From the NCBI GenBank assembly GCA_021791445.1, contig JAJYWO010000002.1:21757-85756 (forward strand): a stretch of 64,000 nt of DNA, read 5' to 3'. How positions within the stretch are numbered: position 1 is the stretch's first letter; each line of letters begins with the position of its first letter. Below are positions 9,003-59,851 of this stretch, in pieces. The stretch comes from a bacterium. Its GTDB lineage: Bacteria; Patescibacteriota; Minisyncoccia; UBA6257; UBA9933. The notes under the pieces are model-generated. The model searched no databases. It saw only the letters and a program-made list of their open reading frames with translations, and was not told where the DNA came from. The translations under genes and the position numbers were made by a program.

Positions 9003-9731
9003 TTAAATATTAAGATAGTTGCTCCACTTATCGTACAGTTCCTTCGTCGCTCTTAAATCGCCAGCGTTGTATCGGGCGATTTCCAAAAATTTTTTCTCTT
9101 TGTACAATCTGCCAACGTCGTCTCCGGTGACGCCGTCTTCTTTGGGGCTTTTTATGTTAAAAAGTTTGCTCCACAAATGCAGACTCCCCTTTTTGCGCAT
9201 ATTACCTTGAAAAGTGAGCTGGTCCGCCAAATCAATGTGCGTACAAGTTTTTTGTTGATATAAATACCGACTTTCGGAAAGATTTTTCGTGGGTCTGATA
9301 CCGTGATAAGCCGAGCGAATCATCAAAAACGGTCCGTCAAATTGCCGGCTGCTGAATCCGATAAATTCATCGTATATTTGGCTGCCCTTCCAGAAATGTT
9401 CCAACATTTCTTTTTCCGTCATTTGCTTGAAAGTGATGCCGTTTTCGCTGAATTCCTCTCCGCCAGCCGGCGGATTTTGTCCGGGCGCGCTGTAATAAAC
9501 AACCCCTTGGTTTTTCGCGTAATCCAAAACGCCGATTGCCACAATTTCTCCGGTTAAAGGCGAAAAACCGAGCCCGTTTTTCAGTTCTTCCAGAGCCACT
9601 TGATAATCCTCTTCTCCAGTTGATTCCTTTTTAATCCAGCGCGTCAAAGAATCTTGCGTTGTCTCGTCCAAAGAATCAAAATCAACTCCGATTGTCTCAA
9701 TATCAAAAATAAGCTTATTAGTTATTGACAT
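9003..9731 (-). CDS. RNase H-like 3'-5' exonuclease (DEDDy type)
   Basis: FDIET (Exo I), HIDLAD and Y-x3-D (YNAGD) motifs. Confidence 0.55.
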   Translation of the reverse strand: MSITNKLIFDIETIGVDFDSLDETTQDSLTRWIKKESTGEEDYQVALEELKNGLGFSPLTGEIVAIGVLDYAKNQGVVYYSAPGQNPPAGGEEFSENGITFKQMTEKEMLEHFWKGSQIYDEFIGFSSRQFDGPFLMIRSAYHGIRPTKNLSESRYLYQQKTCTHIDLADQLTFQGNMRKKGSLHLWSKLFNIKSPKEDGVTGDDVGRLYKEKKFLEIARYNAGDLRATKELYDKWSNYLNI

Positions 9732-15587: not shown

Positions 15588-15635
15588 ATATTATTTTTAC
15601 GATTAATATTATTTATTATTTTTTTATTTTTGTCC

Positions 15636-15652
15636 GCCTTCGGCGGATGAAC
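15636..15652. repeat. REP-like hairpin TCCGCC-TTC-GGCGGA in the tRNA-Ile/tRNA-Val spacer. A tRNA-Val 5' fragment lies nearby at 15733-15756.
   Basis: Seen in the sequence. The reverse complement of 15733-15756 (GCGCGATTAGCGAAGTGG) resembles the tRNA-Val 5' acceptor and D arm. Confidence 0.45.
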
Positions 15653-15759
15653 GCTCTTCCTGGGTGGCTTTTATTGTCTGTAAGCCGCCCGTTGGCCTGA
15701 TATAAATTTTACTTCGTAAAATTTATGTGGCCAACCCACTTCGCTAATCGCGCAATTTG

Positions 15760-20331: not shown

Positions 20332-22044
20332 ATGGATGTCAAGGATTTAATTAGGGATTATTTTAATGATGATGAAAAGCGGCTTATCAGGCGCGCTTTT
20401 GATTTTGCCAAAAAACAGCACCAAGGGCAGAAAAGAAAATCCGGCGAGCCGTATTTTACCCATTGTTTTCAAACCGCGCTAAAACTTGCCGAATGGCAAA
20501 TGGACGCTACGACAATCTCCGCCGGTTTGCTTCACGATGTTATTGAAGATACGAAAATCCCGCTGGAAAATTTTAAAAAAGAATTTGGCGAAGAAATCGC
20601 TTTTCTTGTTGACGGCGTCACGAAAATCGGACGTGTGAAATATCGCCAGCAAAATGGTGAAGTGACCGCCATACAATCGGAAAATATCCGCAAGATGATT
20701 TTGGCGTTGAGCCAGGATTTACGCGTCATATTCATCAAACTCGCCGACCGATTGCATAATATGAAAACGCTCGGCGCTCTGCCTCCGCAAAAACAAAAAA
20801 GGATCGCCTTGGAAACCGCGGAAATTTACTCGCCTATCGCCTATCGCTTGGGAATGGCGAATTTGGCCGGCGAATTGGAAGATTTAGCCTTCCCCTTTCT
20901 TCATCAAAAAGAATATAAATGGCTTTCGGAAAACATTAAAGAAAAATTTGAAGAGCGCCAGAAATATTCGGAAAAAGTGAAAATTGAAGTTGAAAAAGCG
21001 CTGAAAGAGCACAAAATAGAGCCGATAAAAATAGATTTCCGCGCCAAAAGATACAGCAGTTTGTATAAAAAATTGTTCCGGACCAGTATGAATCTGGAAC
21101 AGATTTACGATTTAGTGGCGTTGAGAATAATTGTGAAAACAGTTGAAGAATGCTACGCGGTTTTGGGCATTATTCATCAACTTTGGCCGCCTATGCCCGG
21201 CAGAATAAAAGATTATATTGCCATGCCGAAGCCGAACGGCTATCGCAGTTTGCACACCACGGTTTTCTGCGTTGACAACAAGCCGACCGAATTTCAAATC
21301 AGGACTGCGGAAATGCATGAGGAAGCGGAAAACGGCATCGCGGCTTATTGGGCTTATTCCCAGGCAAAAAGCGGCAAAGATTATCAAAAAAAGAAAGCGA
21401 TTTTCGCGGAGAAAAAGGAATTGGCGTGGATTAACCAATTAAAAGAATGGCAGGGAGAAACCGCTGGTTCCGAAGAATTTCTGCAATCATTGAAAATAGA
21501 TTTTTTAAAAGACAGGATTTTCGCCATTACTCCCAAGGGCGAGGTTGTTGATTTGCCGGCTGGTTCCACTCCGGTGGATTTCGCTTATATGATTCATACG
21601 GACATAGGCAACCAATGCGTCGGCGTGAGGATTAACGGTAAAATAATGCCGCTTGATTATCAACTGCAATCCGGAGATTTGGTGGAAATTCTGGTGCAAA
21701 AAAGCAAAAAACCGTCGCAATCCTGGCTTGAATTCGCCAAAACTTCCATTGCCAAAAAAAGAATCAAGGCGGCGCTCAGAGGTTTGCCGAGCATTATGCG
21801 CGGAAAATCCGATATATTTGAATTCAAAATAATCGCCGAAGACAGAGTTGGGTTGATTAAGGATGTTTCATCGGTGTTTTCCCGGAGCCATATTAACATT
21901 CAAAATCTCAATACCGCCGATATGGCGGAACAATCGGTAGTCAGGGCGCGCTGCGAAATAAACGAGGAAAAAACCGCCAAGTTATTGGTCTTGAAATTGA
22001 AAAAAATAAAAGGAGTAAGGGAAATAAGTTTTAGGAGGGCTTAG
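20332..22044 (+). CDS. rsh: Bifunctional (p)ppGpp synthetase/hydrolase (RelA/SpoT homolog)
   Basis: HD domain (HDVIEDT), synthetase motif RIKDYIAMPKPNGYRSLHTTV, TGS and ACT regions. Confidence 0.9.
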   Translation: MDVKDLIRDYFNDDEKRLIRRAFDFAKKQHQGQKRKSGEPYFTHCFQTALKLAEWQMDATTISAGLLHDVIEDTKIPLENFKKEFGEEIAFLVDGVTKIGRVKYRQQNGEVTAIQSENIRKMILALSQDLRVIFIKLADRLHNMKTLGALPPQKQKRIALETAEIYSPIAYRLGMANLAGELEDLAFPFLHQKEYKWLSENIKEKFEERQKYSEKVKIEVEKALKEHKIEPIKIDFRAKRYSSLYKKLFRTSMNLEQIYDLVALRIIVKTVEECYAVLGIIHQLWPPMPGRIKDYIAMPKPNGYRSLHTTVFCVDNKPTEFQIRTAEMHEEAENGIAAYWAYSQAKSGKDYQKKKAIFAEKKELAWINQLKEWQGETAGSEEFLQSLKIDFLKDRIFAITPKGEVVDLPAGSTPVDFAYMIHTDIGNQCVGVRINGKIMPLDYQLQSGDLVEILVQKSKKPSQSWLEFAKTSIAKKRIKAALRGLPSIMRGKSDIFEFKIIAEDRVGLIKDVSSVFSRSHINIQNLNTADMAEQSVVRARCEINEEKTAKLLVLKLKKIKGVREISFRRA

Positions 22045-22492: not shown

Positions 22493-23554
22493 TTATTTAG
22501 GATTCAGTTTTTCAATAATCCCTCTGATTTCTTCGGGTGAGAAGAATGAAATGATAATTTTCCCCTTTTCTCCTTCTCCGCCGGCCGGCGGATCTATTTT
22601 CACCGGAGCGCCGAGAAGTTCCATCAACTGTTCCTGTAAGGCGCCGAGTTCCGGGTCTGTTGTTGGAATTTTCGCGTCTGCCGGCTGGCGGATGGTTTTT
22701 TCTTCCGTTGGTTTTGTTTCGCGCCTGATTTTATTTTTTAATTCCCTGACGCTTAAATTATTCGCCAAAAGGTCGTAAAAAGCCGCCATCTGCTGGCTTA
22801 AGTCGTTAATGGTCAAAAGCAACCTCCCTTGGCTGTCGTTTATTTTTCCTTCCGCGAGCGCGTCTTGGATTTCCGTGGGCAGATTCAAAAGTCGTATCGT
22901 GTTGGCGATTGTTTCACGGCTCTTGCCGAGCTTGGCGGCAATTTCCCTTTGAGTCAAACCAAAATGGTCTTGTAATTTGGCGTAAGCTCTGGCGGTTTCA
23001 ATGGAATTAAGATTGGCGCGCTGGATATTTTCCACAATCGCCATTTCCATTTGCGGAGCGCCCGGAGCGATTCTTTTAATAATCGCCGGAATCCGCTCAA
23101 GTCCCGCCAATTTTGAAGCCATCAATCGGCGTTCTCCGGCGATAAGCTGATATTCAATTTGCGTGCCGTTTTCAACTTCGTGTTCTATTTTCGTAACAAC
23201 TATAGGTTGAATAATTCCGAATTCGCGGATTGACGCCGCCAGTTCTTTAAGCGATTCTTCGTCAAAAGTTTTTCGCGGCTGGAAAGGATTGGGTTTTATT
23301 TTTTCTATTTCAATATGAAAAATCGCGTCTTTGTGGAAAGAAGATTTTTCTTCCACTGATTGCGGTTTAACTGCTTGCGGCTGTTCTTGCAGTTGCGTTT
23401 GCTGCGGCTGGACTTGCGGTTGAGAAACTTGCGCTTGTTGAATTTGCGGCGCGAATTCGTGATAATGTTCTGTATCCGTCAAAGGCAGCATAAACGGCGC
23501 TTCTTCCTGCGGCTGTTGAGATTGTTGGGGTTGTTGAATATTTTGTTCGTCCAT
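22493..23554 (-). CDS. parB: ParB/Spo0J-like partition protein with a Gln/Pro-rich N-terminal extension
   Basis: ParB N-domain (GIIQPIVV..GERR) and HTH. The first ~70 aa are Q/P-rich low complexity. A copy of the REP hairpin sits in frame at 22687-22702. Confidence 0.8.
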   Translation of the reverse strand: MDEQNIQQPQQSQQPQEEAPFMLPLTDTEHYHEFAPQIQQAQVSQPQVQPQQTQLQEQPQAVKPQSVEEKSSFHKDAIFHIEIEKIKPNPFQPRKTFDEESLKELAASIREFGIIQPIVVTKIEHEVENGTQIEYQLIAGERRLMASKLAGLERIPAIIKRIAPGAPQMEMAIVENIQRANLNSIETARAYAKLQDHFGLTQREIAAKLGKSRETIANTIRLLNLPTEIQDALAEGKINDSQGRLLLTINDLSQQMAAFYDLLANNLSVRELKNKIRRETKPTEEKTIRQPADAKIPTTDPELGALQEQLMELLGAPVKIDPPAGGEGEKGKIIISFFSPEEIRGIIEKLNPK

Positions 23555-23705: not shown

Positions 23706-23756
23706 GCTCCCATAGCTTAGTGGTAAATCCGCCAGCTGGCGGACTTTTAAGCAATT
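23706..23756 (+). pseudogene. tRNA-Lys 5' fragment in which the D-stem 3' strand and anticodon-stem 5' strand are replaced by palindrome TCCGCCAGCTGGCGGA
   Basis: GCTCCCATAGCTTAGTGGTAAA is identical to the 5' end of the intact tRNA-Lys. It then runs palindrome (23728-23743) followed by CTTTTAAGCAATT. Confidence 0.5.
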
Positions 23757-23768
23757 AATTAATATATT

Positions 23769-24032
23769 ATGGAAAAATTTTTTGTCTATGCTATTTACAA
23801 TAAAGAAAAGAATAAAATTTATATTGGACATACAATTAATTTAGAAAATAGATTAAAAAGACATAATGGGTTATTGAAAAATAAAAATAAATCATTTACA
23901 AGTAAAAATAGCGGCGTATGGGAAATAATTTATAATGAGAATTTAAATGCAAGAAAAGAAGCGATTCTAAGAGAAAAACAATTAAAAAGCGCTAAGGGTA
24001 GAGAATTTGTAAAAAGTTTGATAAGAATATAG
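23769..24032 (+). CDS. Stand-alone GIY-YIG nuclease (YhbQ/Slx1-like, 87 aa)
   Basis: FFVYAIY...IYIGHT.NLE.RLKRHN plus conserved downstream E and R..GRE residues. Confidence 0.75.
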   Translation: MEKFFVYAIYNKEKNKIYIGHTINLENRLKRHNGLLKNKNKSFTSKNSGVWEIIYNENLNARKEAILREKQLKSAKGREFVKSLIRI

Positions 24033-24064: not shown

Positions 24065-24135
24065 GCTCCCATAGCTTAGTGGTAAAGCAGTTGCCTTTTA
24101 AGCAATTGATCAAGGTTCGATTCCTTGTGGGAGCA
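24065..24135 (+). tRNA. tRNA-Lys(TTT)
   Basis: Canonical cloverleaf. Anticodon loop CTTTTAA. Discriminator A. Confidence 0.9.
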
Positions 24136-24151
24136 CATTTGGCTTTTTTAA

Positions 24152-24228
24152 ATCCATAGCTTAGTGGTAAATCCGCCGGCTGGCGGACTTTTAAGCAATT
24201 GATCAAGGTTCGATTCCTTGTGGGAGCA
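24152..24228 (+). pseudogene. tRNA-Lys-like pseudogene with a degenerate 5' acceptor and palindrome TCCGCCGGCTGGCGGA (24172-24187) in place of the anticodon-stem 5' strand
   Basis: The 3' two-thirds are identical to tRNA-Lys. The 5' acceptor AAATCCA cannot pair with TGGGAGC. Confidence 0.5.
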
Positions 24229-24267: not shown

Positions 24268-25383
24268 TTAATCCATTTCTTTTTTTAAATCCTCCAATAT
24301 TTTTTTCGCTTTCGCATTCGGTTTTTTCGGGGTTTTGATTTTCAGTTCAACAACCAGATTACCGCGGCCGTGCGAGCCGAAAATCGGCATCCCCTGTTTT
24401 GAAATTATCAAATCTCCTTTCAAATCAAAATTTTCCGGAATTTCAATCTGGATTTTATTGCCGTCAATCGTTGGCGCTTCAATTTTTTCTCCCAATAAAA
24501 TATCAACCAGCTTCACTTCTTTTTTAACAAACAAATCATTTCCGCGCCTGTTGAAAATATGATGCGGCTTTATTTTGATTCGAACATAAAGGTCGCCGGT
24601 TCCCGCCCCTTTTTCTCCGGCTTCGCCCGCGCCTTGAACTTTTATTAATTGTCCGTCCATTATGCCCGCCAAAATTTCAATTTTTACATTGCGTTCGCCG
24701 GAAATTCTTCCGGCGCCGCGGCAATTATGGCAAACTTTTTTCGGAATCTGTCCGCTGCCTTGGCATTCTTTGCATTGTTTGATTTGGGTAAAATTGCCGA
24801 AAAAGGTGCTTCTCGCTTCTTTAATCTCTCCCCTGCCTCCGCAAACAGCGCATTTTTCCAATCCTTCTTTAATATCATAGCCTTTGCTTTCGCATTTTTC
24901 GCAAGAAACGGAAATGCCGTATTTTAATTCTTTTTTCGCGCCGTAAAAAGCTTCTTCAAGCGTTATTTCCTGGATAATTTCAACATCCGCTCCGCGATGG
25001 TAAGTGCGGCGTTTTTGTCTTACGCCCATTCCTTCGAAAAACGCGTTGAAAATATCGCCCAAGTCGGCCATATCGCCGAAAGCCGAAGGGTCCCAGCCCG
25101 AGGCTGGTCCGCCTTGGGCGGAAAAATCAAATCCGAATCCAAACGGACCGTTTCCATCGGAAGCGAATCCGCTTTGGCCGTCAAAAACCCTGCCGTATTT
25201 GTCATATTGCTCCCGCTTGTTTTTATCCGACAAAACCGCGTACGCCTCGGCGATTTCCTTGAATTTTTTTTCATCGCCGCTTTTTTTGTCCGGATGATAT
25301 TGATGCGCTAATTTTCGGAAAGCTTTTTTAATTTCGTCTTCCGACGCGCCTTTGTTTATGCCGAGAATTTTATAGTAATCCAA
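24268..25383 (-). CDS. dnaJ: Chaperone DnaJ
   Basis: J domain with HPDK and four CxxCxGxG repeats. Apparent TTG start. Confidence 0.9.
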
Positions 25384-32574: not shown

Positions 32575-33207
32575 AAAGTTAAATTGTTGCCTCAATCAAT
32601 TAAAAATTTTATAGACGCTTTCTCGGGTTTGCCGGGAATCGGGCCGCGCCAGGCAACGCGGTTGGCTTTTAAATTGGTGGCCGGCGGAAAAAATAAAATT
32701 GAAGAATTAAGCAGGGCGGTTAGTGAACTAAAAAATCTCAAACTTTGCTCGCAATGCTTTTTTATTCATTCCAATTTTGAAAGTCTTTGCGATATTTGCA
32801 AAAATCCGAACCGCCGAAAAGACATTATAATGATTGTTGAGAAAGAAACCGATGTGATTTCATTGGAACGGCCGAAAAAAATCAACGGCCGCTATCTTGT
32901 TTTAGGAGAATTGGATAAAGCCGGAATTTTGGAAAGCGGGCAAAAACTGCGCTTGAACAATTTGAAAACTTTTATCACTAAGGAATTGGCGGACCCTTCG
33001 GCAGGCTCAGGGCAAGGCAAGGCCGAAGAAATTATAATTGCCACCAATCCCACGACTTACGGCGATTTAAACGCTTCCATCATCGCCAAAGAACTGACGG
33101 GATTCGCCAAAAAAATAACCCGTCTCGGCCGCGGCATCCCGACCGGCGGAGAAATAGAATTCGCGGATGAGGATACTTTAGGAGCGGCGTTGGAGAGAAG
33201 GAATTAA
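32566..33207 (+). CDS. recR: Recombination protein RecR
   Basis: C4 zinc finger CSQC...CDIC plus a Toprim domain. Confidence 0.9.
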   Translation: MKLKVKLLPQSIKNFIDAFSGLPGIGPRQATRLAFKLVAGGKNKIEELSRAVSELKNLKLCSQCFFIHSNFESLCDICKNPNRRKDIIMIVEKETDVISLERPKKINGRYLVLGELDKAGILESGQKLRLNNLKTFITKELADPSAGSGQGKAEEIIIATNPTTYGDLNASIIAKELTGFAKKITRLGRGIPTGGEIEFADEDTLGAALERRN

Positions 33208-34536: not shown

Positions 34537-34623
34537 CGGAGAGGGTGGGATTCGAACCCACGGTTCGGTTTCCCGAACAACTTCTTAGCAGGAAGCTGCT
34601 TTCGACCGCTCAGCCACCTCTCC
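34537..34623 (-). tRNA. tRNA-Ser(GCT)
   Basis: Long variable arm. Anticodon loop CTGCTAA. Discriminator G. Confidence 0.85.
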
Positions 34624-34630
34624 AATATTG

Positions 34631-34873
34631 TTATTCTTGAAAAAGATATTTAATTCGTTCTCTTCCTTTCCCTGACTTCAAAAATAATTCTTCTCTTTTG
34701 GCATCTTTCTCTGAAATAAAAGCTTCATAATAAATTAATTCCCAAGGACCATTGTTTTTAGTAAAAATAGAATTGCCGGAATTATGTTCTCTGATTCTTC
34801 GTCTTAAATCATTAGTATAAGCCTTGTATAATTTATTATTTTTTAAACTTTTTAATATATAAACATAATACAT
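34631..34873 (-). CDS. Stand-alone GIY-YIG nuclease (80 aa), immediately upstream of tRNA-Ser
   Basis: YYVYIL...LYKAYTNDLRRRIREHN plus a conserved E and GRE. Confidence 0.75.
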   Translation of the reverse strand: MYYVYILKSLKNNKLYKAYTNDLRRRIREHNSGNSIFTKNNGPWELIYYEAFISEKDAKREELFLKSGKGRERIKYLFQE

Positions 34874-34883
34874 AAAAATTAAT

Positions 34884-34929
34884 ATTACTACTCTCAGCCC
34901 TAGGCTGATCCGCCTCGGGCGGAAGCCAC
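34884..34929 (-). repeat. tRNA-Ser 5'-like fragment (GGAGGCGTGGCT) interrupted by two hairpins, TCCGCC-CGA-GGCGGA and TCAGCC-TAG-GGCTGA, then GGCTGAGAG
   Basis: Minus-strand reading compared with tRNA-Ser GGAGAGGTGGCTGAGCGG. Same architecture as 23706-23756. Confidence 0.45.
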
Positions 34930-34981
34930 GCCTCCAAAAAATCCTTGTAATTATCGCAAATTTCTGATACTTTTACAAGAT

Positions 34982-48988: not shown

Positions 48989-49273
48989 CTCCGCAGGTAG
49001 GATTCGAACCTACGACCAACCGCTTACACTTATCTTAATATTTCTATTAAGGGTGGACTATATCTTCGCCATTAATAAATAAATTTATTATTAGGCGTTT
49101 TGGTATCTAGTCTCTACGGCGCCTCCGACAAAACGTCGGAGTTCCCACGGTATTACCACTTCCTTACTATGGCGGAAAAGGCTTCACCGTTATCCCAAAA
49201 TGTTCATTACTAAGTTTCCTTAGAAAGCTGCGTTATTTCACAGGCGGCCGCTCTACCACTGAGCTACTGCGGA
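48989..49273 (-). tRNA. tRNA, probably tRNA-Asn(GTT), interrupted by a 213-nt group I intron in the anticodon loop
   Basis: Exons give TCCGCAG/CTGCGGA acceptor, D arm GCTC/GAGC, anticodon stem GCCGC/GCGGT, T arm GTAGG-TTCGAAT-CCTAC, and discriminator G. The Asn identity assumes the splice follows CUGU and lands before UAA. Confidence 0.65.
49027..49239 (-). ncRNA. Group I intron (self-splicing ribozyme) with no ORF
   Basis: R-like element GTAGAGACTAGA and S element AAGATATAGTCC, which form P7. The 5' exon ends in U and the intron ends in G. A possible P1 pairs exon CUGU with intron GCAG. Confidence 0.6.
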
Positions 49274-53953: not shown

Positions 53954-56038
<2,085 letters not shown>

Positions 56039-57775: not shown

Positions 57776-59851
57776 TTATTCCCATTTGTCAACCATTAAA
57801 AAGTCCGCATTTTTACTGGGCAAATTCTGGTAAATTTCCTCGGTAATAAACGGCATAAAAGGATGGAGGAGTTTAAGAACAGTATAAAGTATAAAGTATA
57901 AAACAGTAAGCGTTTCGGCTGAATTGTTGTTTTTTGAATATTCAATGTATTTATCCGCTAAATCATGCCAGATAAAATCATAAAGCGTATGAAGCGCCTG
58001 TCCGAATTCATAATTTTCAATATCTTTTTCAACGGATTTTTTCACTTGTTCTAATTTCTCCAAAATTTCTTTATCTTCTTTTGATAATTTTAAATTTGAA
58101 AATTCATTGGAAATTGGAAATTGGAAATTGGAAATTCCAGTTCGTTCCAAGACGAATCTGGCTATATTCCAAATTTTATTAGCAAATTTCTTTCCGGCCA
58201 TCACGTGTTCTTCCGCCCAATGAATATCCTGTCCGCCCATCGCCTGCCAAATCAAACCGAAACGCGTGGCGTCGGCGCCGTATTTTTCAATCAATCCCAT
58301 CGGGTCTATTCCGGTCCCAAGCGATTTTGACATTCGCTTGCCGTCTTTGGTTAAAATCGTCGCGTGAATAATAACATCGCTGAACGGCTCCTTGCCCATA
58401 AATTCCGTTCCGGAAAACACCATTCTTGCTACCCAAAGGTTGATAATATCGCGCGCGGTTGATAAAACCTGTGTCGGATAAAATTCTTTCAAATCCTTGT
58501 TGTTTTTATCGGGCCAACCAAGAGTGGCAAAAGGCCAAAGCGCCGAAGAAAACCAAGTGTCCATAACGTCATTTACGCCTTCAATTGGTATTTTATGCCC
58601 CCACCAAATCTGCCGCGAAATACACCAGTCTTTGATGTTTTTCAGCCAATCCAAATAAACCTTTTCCCATTTCTGCGGATGAAATCTTATTCTCCCGCTT
58701 TCAACGGCCTTAATGGCTGATTTCGCCAATTCATCCATTTTTACGAACCATTGCAAAGACGGGATCGGTTCCACTATGCCATTACAACGATAACATTTGG
58801 CGACGCCATGAGTATAATCTTCCTCTTTTTCCAATAATCCCAATTCTTTCAATTTTTCAATCACTTTTTCCCGACATTCTAAAACTTTTAACCCTTCGCA
58901 AATCTCCCCCGCCAATTGAGTCATTCTGCCTTTCTCGTCAATAATTTTATAAATCGGCAAATTATGCTTTTCTCCCATTTGCGCGTCATTAAAATCGTGC
59001 GCCGGAGTAACTTTCACCGCGCCGGTGCCGAATTCTTTTTCAACCAAATCATCGGCAATAATCGGAATTTCCCTGTTTTGAATCGGCAATAAAACGGATT
59101 GTTCGACAAATTCTTCATATCTTTCATCTTTGGGATTAACCGCCACCGCGGAATCTCCCAACATTGTTTCGGGACGCGTTGTGGCAACAATTATATTACC
59201 GCCCCTTTTTAGCGAATATTTGATATACCATAACTTTGTTTTTTCCTCTACATATTCAAGCTCTAAATCTGACAAACTGGTTCCGCAACGCGGACACCAA
59301 TTTACGACTCTTTCTCCCTGATATATCCATCCTTTTTTATAATAATGATTAAACGCTTCCTGAACCGCTTTTGAATAATTTTCATCCATTGTGAAAGCAG
59401 TGCGCGACCAATCGCAAGAAGCGCCCAGTTTTTTAAGCTGGTCCAAAATTATATTCCCGTATTTTTCTTTCCATTCCCAAACTTTTTCCAGAAATTTTTC
59501 TCTTCCCAATTGATGGCGGGACAATCCTTCTTTTTTTAATTGTTTTTCAACGACATTCTGCGTGGCAATGCCGGCGTGGTCCGTGCCAGGAATCCAAAGT
59601 GCCTTGTATCCTTGCATTCTTTTATAACGAATCAAAATATCCTGAATTGTCGCGTTTAAAGCATGCCCCATATGAAGCGAGCCCGTCACATTCGGCGGCG
59701 GAAGAACGATGGTGAACGTTTTACCTTCATTCGGATTATCAGCCCGAGGCTGATGCGCTTCCGGCGCAAAAAAACCGCTCTGCTCCCAAAACTTGTAAAT
59801 TTTTTCTTCCGTTTCTTTTGGATTATATGGCTGATTAAATTTCTCGTTCAT
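57776..59851 (-). CDS. valS: Valyl-tRNA synthetase (short form)
   Basis: PPPNVTGSLHMGHAL and KMSKSLGT. In-frame (GGAAATT)4 at 58109-58136 and a REP hairpin at 59735-59751. Confidence 0.9.
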   Translation of the reverse strand: MNEKFNQPYNPKETEEKIYKFWEQSGFFAPEAHQPRADNPNEGKTFTIVLPPPNVTGSLHMGHALNATIQDILIRYKRMQGYKALWIPGTDHAGIATQNVVEKQLKKEGLSRHQLGREKFLEKVWEWKEKYGNIILDQLKKLGASCDWSRTAFTMDENYSKAVQEAFNHYYKKGWIYQGERVVNWCPRCGTSLSDLELEYVEEKTKLWYIKYSLKRGGNIIVATTRPETMLGDSAVAVNPKDERYEEFVEQSVLLPIQNREIPIIADDLVEKEFGTGAVKVTPAHDFNDAQMGEKHNLPIYKIIDEKGRMTQLAGEICEGLKVLECREKVIEKLKELGLLEKEEDYTHGVAKCYRCNGIVEPIPSLQWFVKMDELAKSAIKAVESGRIRFHPQKWEKVYLDWLKNIKDWCISRQIWWGHKIPIEGVNDVMDTWFSSALWPFATLGWPDKNNKDLKEFYPTQVLSTARDIINLWVARMVFSGTEFMGKEPFSDVIIHATILTKDGKRMSKSLGTGIDPMGLIEKYGADATRFGLIWQAMGGQDIHWAEEHVMAGKKFANKIWNIARFVLERTGISNFQFPISNEFSNLKLSKEDKEILEKLEQVKKSVEKDIENYEFGQALHTLYDFIWHDLADKYIEYSKNNNSAETLTVLYFILYTVLKLLHPFMPFITEEIYQNLPSKNADFLMVDKWE

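Follow-up and report, generated by a model that had tools for sequence, protein, structure and literature searches.

A probable mobile GIY-YIG cassette with a double-hairpin element in a tRNA-Ser(GCT) gene of a Patescibacteria genome

Organization of the tRNA-Ser(GCT) locus

The window analysed here is a stretch of 64,000 nucleotides (nt) from a member of the Patescibacteriota (UBA9933), positions 21,757–85,756 of the forward strand of contig JAJYWO010000002.1 (assembly GCA_021791445.1). On its minus strand, a complete tRNA-Ser(GCT) gene is immediately preceded by a small GIY-YIG open reading frame (ORF), which in turn follows an AT-rich linker, two adjacent 15-nt GC hairpins, hereafter the double-hairpin element (DHE), and a 5′ fragment (stub) of another tRNA-Ser gene (Table 1). 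The insert spans ~390 nt and carries this single ORF of 80 amino acids (aa). An earlier reading of the window from its letters alone, hereafter the sequence-only reading, had listed these parts in this order, and every one of them is indeed found in place on the minus strand.

The stub GGAGGCGTGGCT matches nt 1–12 of the window's own tRNA-Ser, which starts with GGAGAGGTGGCT, at 10 of 12 positions, whereas it is identical (12/12) to the 5′ end of the tRNA-Ser in the relatives L173, L177 and L178 and matches that of L176 at 11 of 12 positions. These loci were reached through the divergent neighbour infB as the synteny anchor: relatives of its product, initiation factor 2 (IF-2), were found and their loci fetched. 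In all four, with IF-2 identities to the window of 84% (L173), 76% (L176) and 74% (L177 and L178), the tRNA-Ser(GCT) gene beside infB is naive, carrying neither ORF, stub nor DHE. Since the stub corresponds to the start of the naive relatives' tRNA-Ser and differs from the window's own tRNA, it is the remnant of a former resident gene. The window's tRNA-Ser differs from that of the syntenic relatives in the 3′ acceptor strand, the variable arm and the T stem; it is ~80% identical both to the tRNAs of host relatives and to tRNAs beside GIY-YIG homologs, and looks mosaic.

The flank upstream of the stub, with a promoter-like site, is kept in L173 and in a further relative, L174 (IF-2 identity 78%). 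Judged by its hexamers, this site is the only plausible driver of the stub, the ORF and the tRNA. Between the hairpins and the ATG there are just 20 nt, too few to accommodate a promoter, and therefore the ORF is most likely read from the tRNA promoter. In the minimum-free-energy fold of the leader RNA, the stub pairs with the 5′ arm of hairpin 1 and the two hairpins do not form, while the centroid fold of the leader DNA consists of the two hairpins. The folding z-scores are only −2.2 and −2.6; with scores this weak, the support for two hairpins comes from comparative data, not from energy.

Table 1. Features of the tRNA-linked loci and of the solo elements in the window
Feature	Position	Strand	Basis or remark
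Promoter-like site, TTGTAA-17 nt-GATAAT, with TG upstream of the second hexamer	34950-34978	minus	consensus match only
5′ stub of former resident tRNA-Ser(GCT), nt 1-12, GGAGGCGTGGCT	34924-34935	minus	tRNA comparison
DHE, between tRNA nt 12 and 13	34894-34923	minus	hairpin search and family consensus
Hairpin 1, TCCGCC-CGA-GGCGGA	34923-34909	minus	
Hairpin 2, TCAGCC-TAG-GGCTGA	34908-34894	minus	
GAG (tRNA nt 13-15 resuming) and 17-nt AT-rich linker TAGTAATATTAATTTTT	34893-34874	minus	precedes ATG
Ser-type GIY-YIG ORF, 80 aa, ATG at 34873	34873-34631	minus	Pfam PF01541, E = 2.4e-14
Intact tRNA-Ser(GCT), replacement copy, 6 nt past the ORF	34624-34536	minus	ARAGORN; Rfam 59.2 bits
tRNA-Lys 5′ stub, nt 1-22	23706-23727	plus	
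16-nt palindrome TCCGCCAGCTGGCGGA, in place of tRNA-Lys nt 23-30	23728-23743	plus	
tRNA-Lys nt 31-43	23744-23756	plus	
Lys-locus linker AATTAATATATT, before ATG at 23769		plus	
Lys-type GIY-YIG ORF, 87 aa	23769-24032	plus	Pfam E = 1.9e-16
Intact tRNA-Lys(TTT)	24065-24136	plus	identical to the single tRNA-Lys of empty sites L093 and L100
Displaced, disrupted tRNA-Lys copy: nt 5-22, palindrome TCCGCCGGCTGGCGGA (24172-24187), nt 31-71	24154-24228	plus	
tRNA-Val stub, nt 1-11, ORF-less locus	15753-15743	minus	
End of ~95 nt of hairpin-rich sequence, TCCGCC-GAA-GGCGGA	15647-15633	minus	
Intact tRNA-Val, after an AT linker	15587-15513	minus	
Solo DHE, in frame in the dnaJ G/F region	25093-25122	minus	nearly the same unit as the Ser-locus DHE
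Solo DHE-like unit, in frame near the valS N-terminus, TGCGCC-GGA-AGCGCA + TCAGCC-TCG-GGCTGA	59739-59769	minus	

The GIY-YIG protein

The Ser-type protein and a second protein from the tRNA-Lys locus described below are 37% identical and are the only GIY-YIG products of the window. With 53.8 and 60.5 bits they lie well above the curated cut-off of Pfam PF01541 (22.6 bits), and no other Pfam domain is found in their 80–87 aa. Across 22 sequences, Y5, Y16, R26, H30 and E62 are invariant; we take these residues to correspond to Y6, Y17, R27, H31 and E75 of I-TevI. A profile search returns the UPF0213 proteins BH0048 (1zg2, E = 3.2e-12) and EF2693 (1ywl, E = 1.2e-6), followed by Slx1. The AlphaFold2 (AF2) model, with a mean predicted local distance difference test (pLDDT) score of 92.8, consists of three strands and four helices, and a Foldseek search with it places 1zg2 and the Slx1 nuclease domains (template modelling score, TM, 0.65–0.71) ahead of I-TevI and UvrC. 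The protein is thus predicted, from sequence and model together, to be a minimal UPF0213/Slx1-like GIY-YIG nuclease.

The ratio of nonsynonymous to synonymous substitution rates (dN/dS) is 0.02–0.13 where measurable. The synonymous rate (dS) is saturated between most homolog pairs, and the conservation of the protein therefore reflects selection; the family appears to be old and under purifying selection. A recent horizontal transfer behind the 70–84% protein identity is not supported, given the saturated dS, and a phage origin was set aside because only one weak relative was found in IMG/VR.

The locus L180, from the same species as the window, is uninformative on the junctions. It is otherwise 100% identical and carries 8 clustered substitutions within the GIY-YIG ORF at 34767–34777 (NSGNSIF versus NSKKITF), which could represent a micro-conversion or strain variation.

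Recurrence of the layout across Patescibacteria

The Ser-type protein has 798 database relatives, with 70–84% identity in many Patescibacteria lineages, and at least 557 loci were confirmed in species-representative genomes, Bacteroidota and Ignavibacteria not counted. The loci of relatives were retrieved through protein homology alone, with one genome per species, and the best 80 of these were fetched. Counts of tRNA linkage refer to the 75 Patescibacteria species loci with sufficient downstream sequence, a locus being called tRNA-linked when a tRNA gene starts on the same strand within 150 nt of the end of the protein match.

A same-strand tRNA gene follows the ORF in 65 of these 75 loci; in 58 of them, the distance from the protein match is at most 50 nt. 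The partner is tRNA-Ser in 58 of the 65 (TGA 19, GCT 18, GGA 11, CGA 10), and otherwise tRNA-Tyr, -Asp, -Cys, -Thr or -Gln. A DHE is found in 60 of the 65, within the 130 nt upstream of the ORF and in a 5′ tRNA stub. The common layout begins with tRNA nt 1 to p, followed by the DHE, by 3–12 nt of tRNA sequence resuming at p+1, by 9–41 nt that are usually AT-rich, by the ORF and, after 0–30 nt, by the intact tRNA. The sequence-only reading had argued that a syntax shared by two tRNA genes is no coincidence, and these numbers bear it out: the layout is more than chance.

In 36 loci the stub exactly equals the start of the adjacent tRNA, with p = 12 or 13 in 21 of them and p = 8 in five; the remaining values are 9, 10, 11, 14, 16, 21, 28, 34 and 36. 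The junctions fall in the 8/9 connector, the D loop and the anticodon loop, and T-loop junctions are seen in displaced 3′ fragments (L060, L086 and L113). Whether p is 8, 12/13, 21 or 34–36, the DHE is always found a few nt short of the stub end; because it tracks the stub end wherever this is located, it is part of the ORF insertion and not a later coloniser. When the proteins are clustered by identity, the junction position (8/9, 12/13, 13/14, 21/22 or 35/36) and the DHE variant prove to be clade-specific. The tRNA partner, meanwhile, varies within a protein clade (Ser-GCT, Ser-TGA, Cys), and a change from Ser to Cys is seen where both tRNAs share GTGGCC/GAGTGGTT (the slash marks the junction).

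The same proteins are encoded on 12 and 6 contigs of independent assemblies; wherever these include flanking sequence, the neighbouring genes are unchanged, and an assembly artefact is therefore ruled out.

Empty, relic, split and nested sites

In addition to the naive tRNA-Ser sites, other states of occupation are found. In L174, which shares the window's upstream flank, AGGGCGTGGCG is followed by GTTATAATAT and then by yet another tRNA-Ser(GCT), with no ORF in between; this locus looks like a relic left after ORF loss. At the Lys locus, for which dnaJ served as the synteny anchor, the sites of L093 and L100 (77–78% DnaJ identity) are empty and contain one tRNA-Lys next to the terminator. Only 4 of ~50 dnaJ-linked tRNA-Lys loci carry a GIY-YIG ORF.

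In L066, the upstream stub (nt 1–36) and the displaced 3′ part (nt 37 to the end) form a valid tRNA-Ser(TGA) by ARAGORN once the insert is removed, and in L042, L086 and L113 both halves of the split resident gene are kept, each capped by hairpins. Nested or tandem copies occur in L022, L029, L033 and L187, and L184 probably carries a second copy, its contig ending ~70 nt into it. These copies suggest re-invasion of a still-cleavable tRNA gene, which would also explain the lack of obvious sequence immunity. The sequence-only reading had proposed a mobile module, a proposal strengthened by the recurrence of the layout, the empty sites at both the Ser and the Lys loci, and the origin of the stub.

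Two observations belong beside these sites. Between the two tandem GIY-YIG elements of L022, at 1808–1895, ARAGORN reports a tRNA-Ser with the anticodon ACT, probably a mutated or pseudo tRNA produced by the invasions. At the naive tRNA-Ser(GCT) site of L178 (1–110, reverse strand), a different GIY-YIG-like ORF (MYYVYTLRCSDNHLYTGCTENIEER) starts ~80 nt past the tRNA, beyond a GC-rich hairpin region; this Patescibacteria relative has a second type of element, whose polarity is Bacteroidota-like.

Conservation and dispersal of the double-hairpin element

In the sequence-only reading, the 3′ arm of hairpin 2 continued as the tRNA-Ser D-arm. An origin of hairpin 2 from the D-arm is rejected, as the same two-hairpin unit occurs in dnaJ and in at least 60 loci of differing tRNA sequence; the DHE is an element of 30 nt, conserved and oriented, that has entered between tRNA nt 12 and 13. 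Its consensus across 65 sequences is NCNGCC-CRA-GGCNGN NCNGCC-TNG-GGCNGN. The outer three stem pairs covary perfectly (position 3 is C, A or G in 23, 19 and 11 cases, and position 13 is G, T or C in 23, 19 and 11), while the inner GCC/GGC and the loops are nearly fixed. In the same 65 sequences, 99.7% of cells are paired, a figure that is partly circular since DHEs were picked by complementarity; the covariation pattern and the occupancy of 60/65 are not circular. Double-sided changes number 108, against 36.5 in shuffles, none of 500 shuffles reaching 108, and shifting the 3′ partners abolishes the pairing. The two loops differ and the element is therefore oriented: its orientation is constant relative to the ORF and runs along transcription in dnaJ and valS. 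The dyad symmetry fits the formation of a hairpin or cruciform, or binding by a symmetric oligomer.

The window contains 11 copies of the hairpin TCCGCC-N3-5-GGCGGA, where 0.04 would be expected. Of these, four fall in the three tRNA-stub loci, and other copies are situated in parB, dnaJ, the 5S–23S spacer and the 23S rRNA. Related loci totalling 297 kb contain 80 DHEs; 66 of these are found in the 140 nt that precede the ORF, and the remaining 14 are mostly in further tRNA fragments. The sequence-only reading had named two conditions that together would refute its module. The first, no alignment of the two upstream regions beyond the short hairpin, holds (see below). The second, a generic repetitive extragenic palindrome (REP) with no enrichment at tRNA or GIY-YIG loci, does not: the hairpins are dispersed genome-wide, and yet they are strongly enriched at GIY-YIG genes and tRNA stubs.

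The in-frame solo unit of dnaJ is present as an identical 30 nt in the dnaJ of L099 and with one substitution in L104, and the same peptide is encoded in L102; the DnaJ proteins of these three are only 62–64% identical to that of the window. In the closest relatives (77–78% DnaJ identity), the DHE is absent and a different stretch of equal length takes its place, so that the dnaJ copy looks like a converted patch rather than an insertion. The DHE-like unit of valS encodes APEAHQPRADN. Off the tRNA genes, the 16-nt palindrome TCCGCC(A/G)GC(C/T)GGCGGA is found at 9459–9474, 22577–22592, 54385–54400 and 55516–55531; the second of these lies in parB, where it encodes PPAGG near the C-terminus. In recR (32989–33030), a GC-rich insertion of ~8 aa (KELADPSAGSGQGKAEE in the window versus KELGGQAEE in L173) may be another GC insert in a coding gene.

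The tRNA-Lys and tRNA-Val loci of the window

The Lys locus belongs to the same class of element, as a second member with only a distant relationship to the Ser locus. Its intact tRNA-Lys lies between the ORF and a disrupted copy that scores 21.9 bits for the Rfam tRNA family, under the gathering score. The disrupted copy adjoins the terminator, the position held by the only tRNA-Lys of L093 and L100, and the cassette with the intact copy lies upstream of it. The sequence-only reading had this locus match the Ser locus; the syntax of stub, hairpin, linker and ATG is the same, while the element is one 16-nt palindrome and not two hairpins. L118 and L150 have the layout of the window, with tRNA-Lys nt 1–22, the palindrome and CTTTTAAGC ahead of the ATG. 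The alignment of the upstream regions of the Ser and Lys loci, which the sequence-only reading had suggested, finds nothing beyond the hairpin core and AT-richness: the two regions share syntax, not sequence. Rfam searches of the Ser, Lys and Val loci, at the gathering threshold and at E <= 1, return tRNA families only. A group I intron or other known RNA family was rejected, since no intron family is found in Rfam and a complete tRNA follows the ORF.

The tRNA-Val locus combines a stub, hairpins and an intact tRNA without an ORF. Its hairpin-rich insert (15588–15742, minus strand) is ~150 nt long and contains CCCAGGAAGAGCGTTCA-TCCGCCGAAGGCGGA; a like insert lies between a tRNA-Lys stub and tRNA-Lys in L094 (2868–2965), with CCCAGGAAAAGCAGTAA-TCCGCCGAAGGCGGA. 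No Rfam family is found in inserts of this type, which could be a distinct non-coding passenger or a decayed cassette. Furthermore, an intergenic 18-nt exact copy of the tRNA-Val D-arm region TAGCTCAGTGGTAGAGCG at 49249–49266 (minus strand), followed by GCCGCCTGTGAAAT, may be another tRNA stub.

Related elements in other phyla

Relatives of the Lys-type protein, with 50–55% identity, occur in Stygiobacter (Ignavibacteria), Pedobacter, Bacteroidales, Prolixibacteraceae and a metagenome-assembled genome (MAG) labelled Chlorobi. All five non-Patescibacteria proteins looked up, at one locus each, are tRNA-linked with mirrored polarity: an intact tRNA (Met or Asn) is followed by a terminator, the ORF, a palindrome-disrupted 3′ tRNA copy and a duplicated terminator. 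The palindrome is exactly TCCGCCAGCTGGCGGA in L184 (Pedobacter) and L186 (Prolixibacteraceae), and variants of it, TCCGCCGCTTGGCGGA and TCCGTTAGCTAACGGA, are present in L185 and L187, the latter being a tandem array of two elements. Whichever the polarity, it is at the palindrome that the insert with the ORF meets the disrupted tRNA copy; the palindrome is hence integral to the element at the DNA level, and neither a single-genome repeat nor a mere feature of a 5′ untranslated region. Overall, hundreds of bacterial species show this layout at their tRNA genes, and they represent no fewer than three phyla (Patescibacteria, Bacteroidota and Ignavibacteria).

Proposed mechanism

The insert is probably a small selfish mobile cassette that invaded tRNA-Ser(GCT), supplies a replacement tRNA and uses the tRNA promoter. 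This interpretation builds on the architecture and its recurrence, the empty and relic sites, the origin of the stub, the nuclease fold and the purifying selection described above. The insert would extend from the DHE through the 80-aa GIY-YIG gene to the complete tRNA-Ser, the resident having been replaced from nt 13 onward and reduced to a 12-nt 5′ stub capped by the DHE. The resident tRNA promoter would most likely drive the ORF, whose transcript would form the leader of the tRNA precursor; because the host keeps a tRNA, the insertion would cost it little. To spread, the nuclease may break the tRNA gene within or next to a loop of the DNA that encodes the cloverleaf, and the break would be repaired from an occupied allele, with the stub as the homology arm on one side and the intact tRNA on the other. 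Everything between the arms, palindrome included, would be copied in, in the manner of intronless homing. At the break site, the insert would end with the hairpins or the palindrome. These are regarded as an integral cis element on two grounds, their covariation with the protein lineage and the identity of one palindrome between phyla; they may serve the nuclease as recognition site or substrate, or else prevent renewed cleavage and the loss of sequence between the repeats by deletion.

A broader form of this idea can be put forward only tentatively: a cross-phylum element class in which a minimal nuclease works with its own palindrome or DHE and targets the loops of tRNA, perhaps also rRNA, genes by structure. 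Targeting would take place when the DNA of these heavily transcribed genes folds, the palindrome would be the recognition or cleavage element of the enzyme, and the same machinery might seed solo palindromes in frame into essential genes. In that case, some of the UPF0213 family would acquire a function, and a new mode of targeting structured-RNA genes would be established.

Several observations weigh against a homing cassette. The protein consists of 80 aa with the catalytic domain only and has no DNA-binding module, unlike the characterised GIY-YIG homing enzymes, and homology arms as short as 12 nt are poor recombination substrates. The DHE disrupts the stub, but the intact tRNA beside the ORF keeps the junction sequence of the stub (e.g., GTGGCT/GAG), so that an occupied allele has no obvious sequence immunity. 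The family is old, and among its dS-saturated pairs no very recent transfer was caught. Moreover, 8 homologs that form a basal clade lack both a tRNA and a DHE in their vicinity, and hairpins or DHEs also lie off the tRNA genes, in dnaJ, valS and parB, which the model does not account for.

Alternative explanations

These dispersed copies lend some weight to a rather unlikely alternative, akin to the systems of REP sequences and REP-associated tyrosine transposases (RAYT), in which the palindrome or DHE is the mobile or convertible unit and the GIY-YIG protein a nuclease acting in trans; it overlaps with the cassette and does not exclude it. A dimer or tetramer would bind the duplex palindrome, or a Slx1-like enzyme would cut extruded hairpins, either with the same low probability; the ORF-bearing tRNA copy would then be the autonomous master and the solo hairpins (dnaJ, valS, parB and intergenic) non-autonomous copies, a division of roles that seems equally doubtful. 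Such a unit would suit the 11 hairpins in the window, some of them inside genes, the identity of TCCGCCAGCTGGCGGA between the window, Pedobacter and Prolixibacteraceae, and the 30-nt DHE that the window's dnaJ shares with L099, and nearly so with L104, while the closest relatives lack it at unchanged length. The covarying outer stem around a fixed, oriented core, and a predicted fold whose nearest relatives are the structure-specific Slx1 nucleases, point the same way, and Cfr42I is a tetrameric GIY-YIG restriction enzyme that binds a palindrome (PMC2241918). However, a hydrolytic GIY-YIG nuclease is incapable of strand transfer, so that repair would still be needed; with 66 of 80 DHEs at the ORF and most others in tRNA fragments, dispersal outside the window is limited; and an element that keeps its cleavage site beside its own gene would cut itself.

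It is improbable that the ORF is a domesticated host gene with a role in the tRNA operon, such as nucleic-acid processing or repair, and just as improbable that the stub and hairpins form its cis-regulatory leader (by mimicking a tRNA, stabilising the mRNA or controlling translation). Such a gene would fit the strong purifying selection at saturated dS, the 70–84% protein identity across many Patescibacteria lineages and a DHE orientation fixed relative to transcription, and in several loci the DHE 3′ arm and GAG together make a putative GGGAG-like Shine-Dalgarno sequence 3–12 nt before the ATG. Nevertheless, presence is patchy among close relatives at both loci, the tRNA partner changes within one protein clade (Ser-GCT, Ser-TGA, Cys), and degenerate ORFs and ORF-less relics exist (L099, L174 and L020). 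The stub mismatches the adjacent tRNA in the window and in L048, L050 and L056, so pairing with the tRNA is not maintained, and the palindrome of the Bacteroidota and Ignavibacteria elements follows the ORF, where it can be no 5′ leader. By far the least probable is a set of unrelated events, with stubs left by duplication and decay, generic hairpins as secondary colonisers and the ORF as a passenger tolerant of sites near tRNA genes, or else an artefact of assembly. The dispersal of hairpins in the window's genome and the contigs of its species that often break at GIY-YIG loci would agree with this; it is largely refuted by the DHE tracking the stub end at any position, by its presence in 60 of 65 tRNA-linked loci, by the recurrence of the layout in independent assemblies from many species and three phyla, and by the naive sites without a stub.

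Comparison with known systems

The mobile cassette is filed here as a variant of the free-standing GIY-YIG homing cassettes. In T4, SegB is a free-standing GIY-YIG homing endonuclease in the tRNA gene cluster that drives the preferential inheritance of this cluster (PMC2330249). Like the Seg genes of the T-even phages, the cassette contains a non-intron GIY-YIG ORF among tRNA genes, present or absent between relatives; Seg genes are thought to spread by a break and the co-conversion of flanking DNA, that is, by intronless homing, and the same is proposed here. Two characters of a homing endonuclease gene are thus found, an ORF outside any intron or intein and presence/absence polymorphism at the Ser and Lys loci, while a separate DNA-binding module of the I-TevI, I-BmoI or Seg type is lacking. 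Seg proteins have ~200 aa or more with DNA-binding modules, in contrast to the catalytic domain of 80 aa in the cassette, and reside in phages rather than in cellular genomes. Furthermore, Seg genes have not been described with a target stub, a regenerated target gene or a terminal palindrome, all three of which the cassette has.

The best sequence and fold matches of the cassette protein are UPF0213 (YazA/YhbQ, BH0048, EF2693) and Slx1. A minimal prokaryotic Slx1-like branch has been defined by Dunin-Horkawicz et al. (PMC1564403). Slx1 itself acts with Slx4 and carries a RING/PHD domain, in contrast to the single-domain cassette protein, and in the literature searched, no tRNA or palindrome context for UPF0213 was found. 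In the candidate phyla radiation (CPR), GIY-YIG ORFs are found in non-intron insertions (neither group I nor group II) of rRNA genes, most rRNA insertions lying at the top or base of stem-loops (PMC11270868). The phylum is the same and the target is again a structured-RNA gene, the cassette junctions being in or next to the D, anticodon and T loops; neither tRNA nor flanking hairpins are mentioned in that work (PMC11270868).

Tyrosine-integrase islands, like the cassette, insert into a tRNA gene and regenerate an intact tRNA through a carried copy of the displaced part. Unlike them, the cassette duplicates the 5′ end of the tRNA in Patescibacteria, and the leftover copy is interrupted by a palindrome. 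An integrase-mediated island was rejected for the Ser locus: there is no integrase, the insert is short with one 80-aa ORF, and the duplicated part is nt 1–12 and not the 3′ end.

In the mitochondria of Allomyces macrogynus, the GIY-YIG-type ORF360 reportedly entered atp6 together with a replacement part of the gene, the displaced resident part persisting as a pseudogene fragment. The Allomyces double-hairpin elements are likewise said to be GC-rich and dispersed through an AT-rich genome, coding and rRNA regions included. That element is mitochondrial and targets a protein-coding gene, and its link between hairpin and ORF is reportedly loose, compared with the fixed terminal DHE of the cassette. 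Organellar double-hairpin or GC-cluster elements resemble the DHE, with two adjacent GC hairpins, an AT-rich genome and copies in coding regions, in form only.

In REP/RAYT and IS200/IS605 systems, short palindromes are dispersed and a nuclease gene is flanked by the same palindrome, and copies of the Rickettsia palindromic elements lie in frame inside essential genes. The cassette's palindrome is likewise dispersed through its genome at an excess far above expectation, with in-frame copies in dnaJ and valS. Unlike the REP/RAYT and IS200/IS605 elements, the cassette has a GIY-YIG gene as its only ORF and no HUH/Y1 transposase, its palindrome is on one side only, and its tie to tRNA fragments is strong. 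No description of a bacterial GIY-YIG gene with tRNA stubs and hairpins was found in the full-text literature searched, which leaves subscription journals largely uncovered, and the arrangement is apparently undescribed.

Should the interpretation as a mobile cassette hold, a definite biological role could be assigned to the tRNA-linked members of UPF0213, a family with two solved structures, both deposited simply as hypothetical UPF0213 proteins. The element, overlooked but widespread, would contribute to the turnover of tRNA genes and give rise to tRNA pseudogene fragments and to breaks in assemblies. It would also exemplify low-cost parasitism, in which an essential gene is disrupted, a replacement copy is delivered and the gene's promoter is apparently borrowed. 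An 80-aa nuclease with a palindromic partner site of 16–30 bp could serve as a very small programmable or structure-directed DNA cutter. In addition, the in-frame dnaJ and valS copies parallel the Rickettsia palindromic elements and suggest a general route to protein reshaping in reduced genomes.

Effect on genome assembly

In L001, L010 and other contigs of the window's species, independent assemblies often end within ~100–200 nt past the GIY-YIG ORFs, inside duplicated tRNA sequence. The GIY-YIG/tRNA elements are in this way a practical cause of MAG fragmentation.

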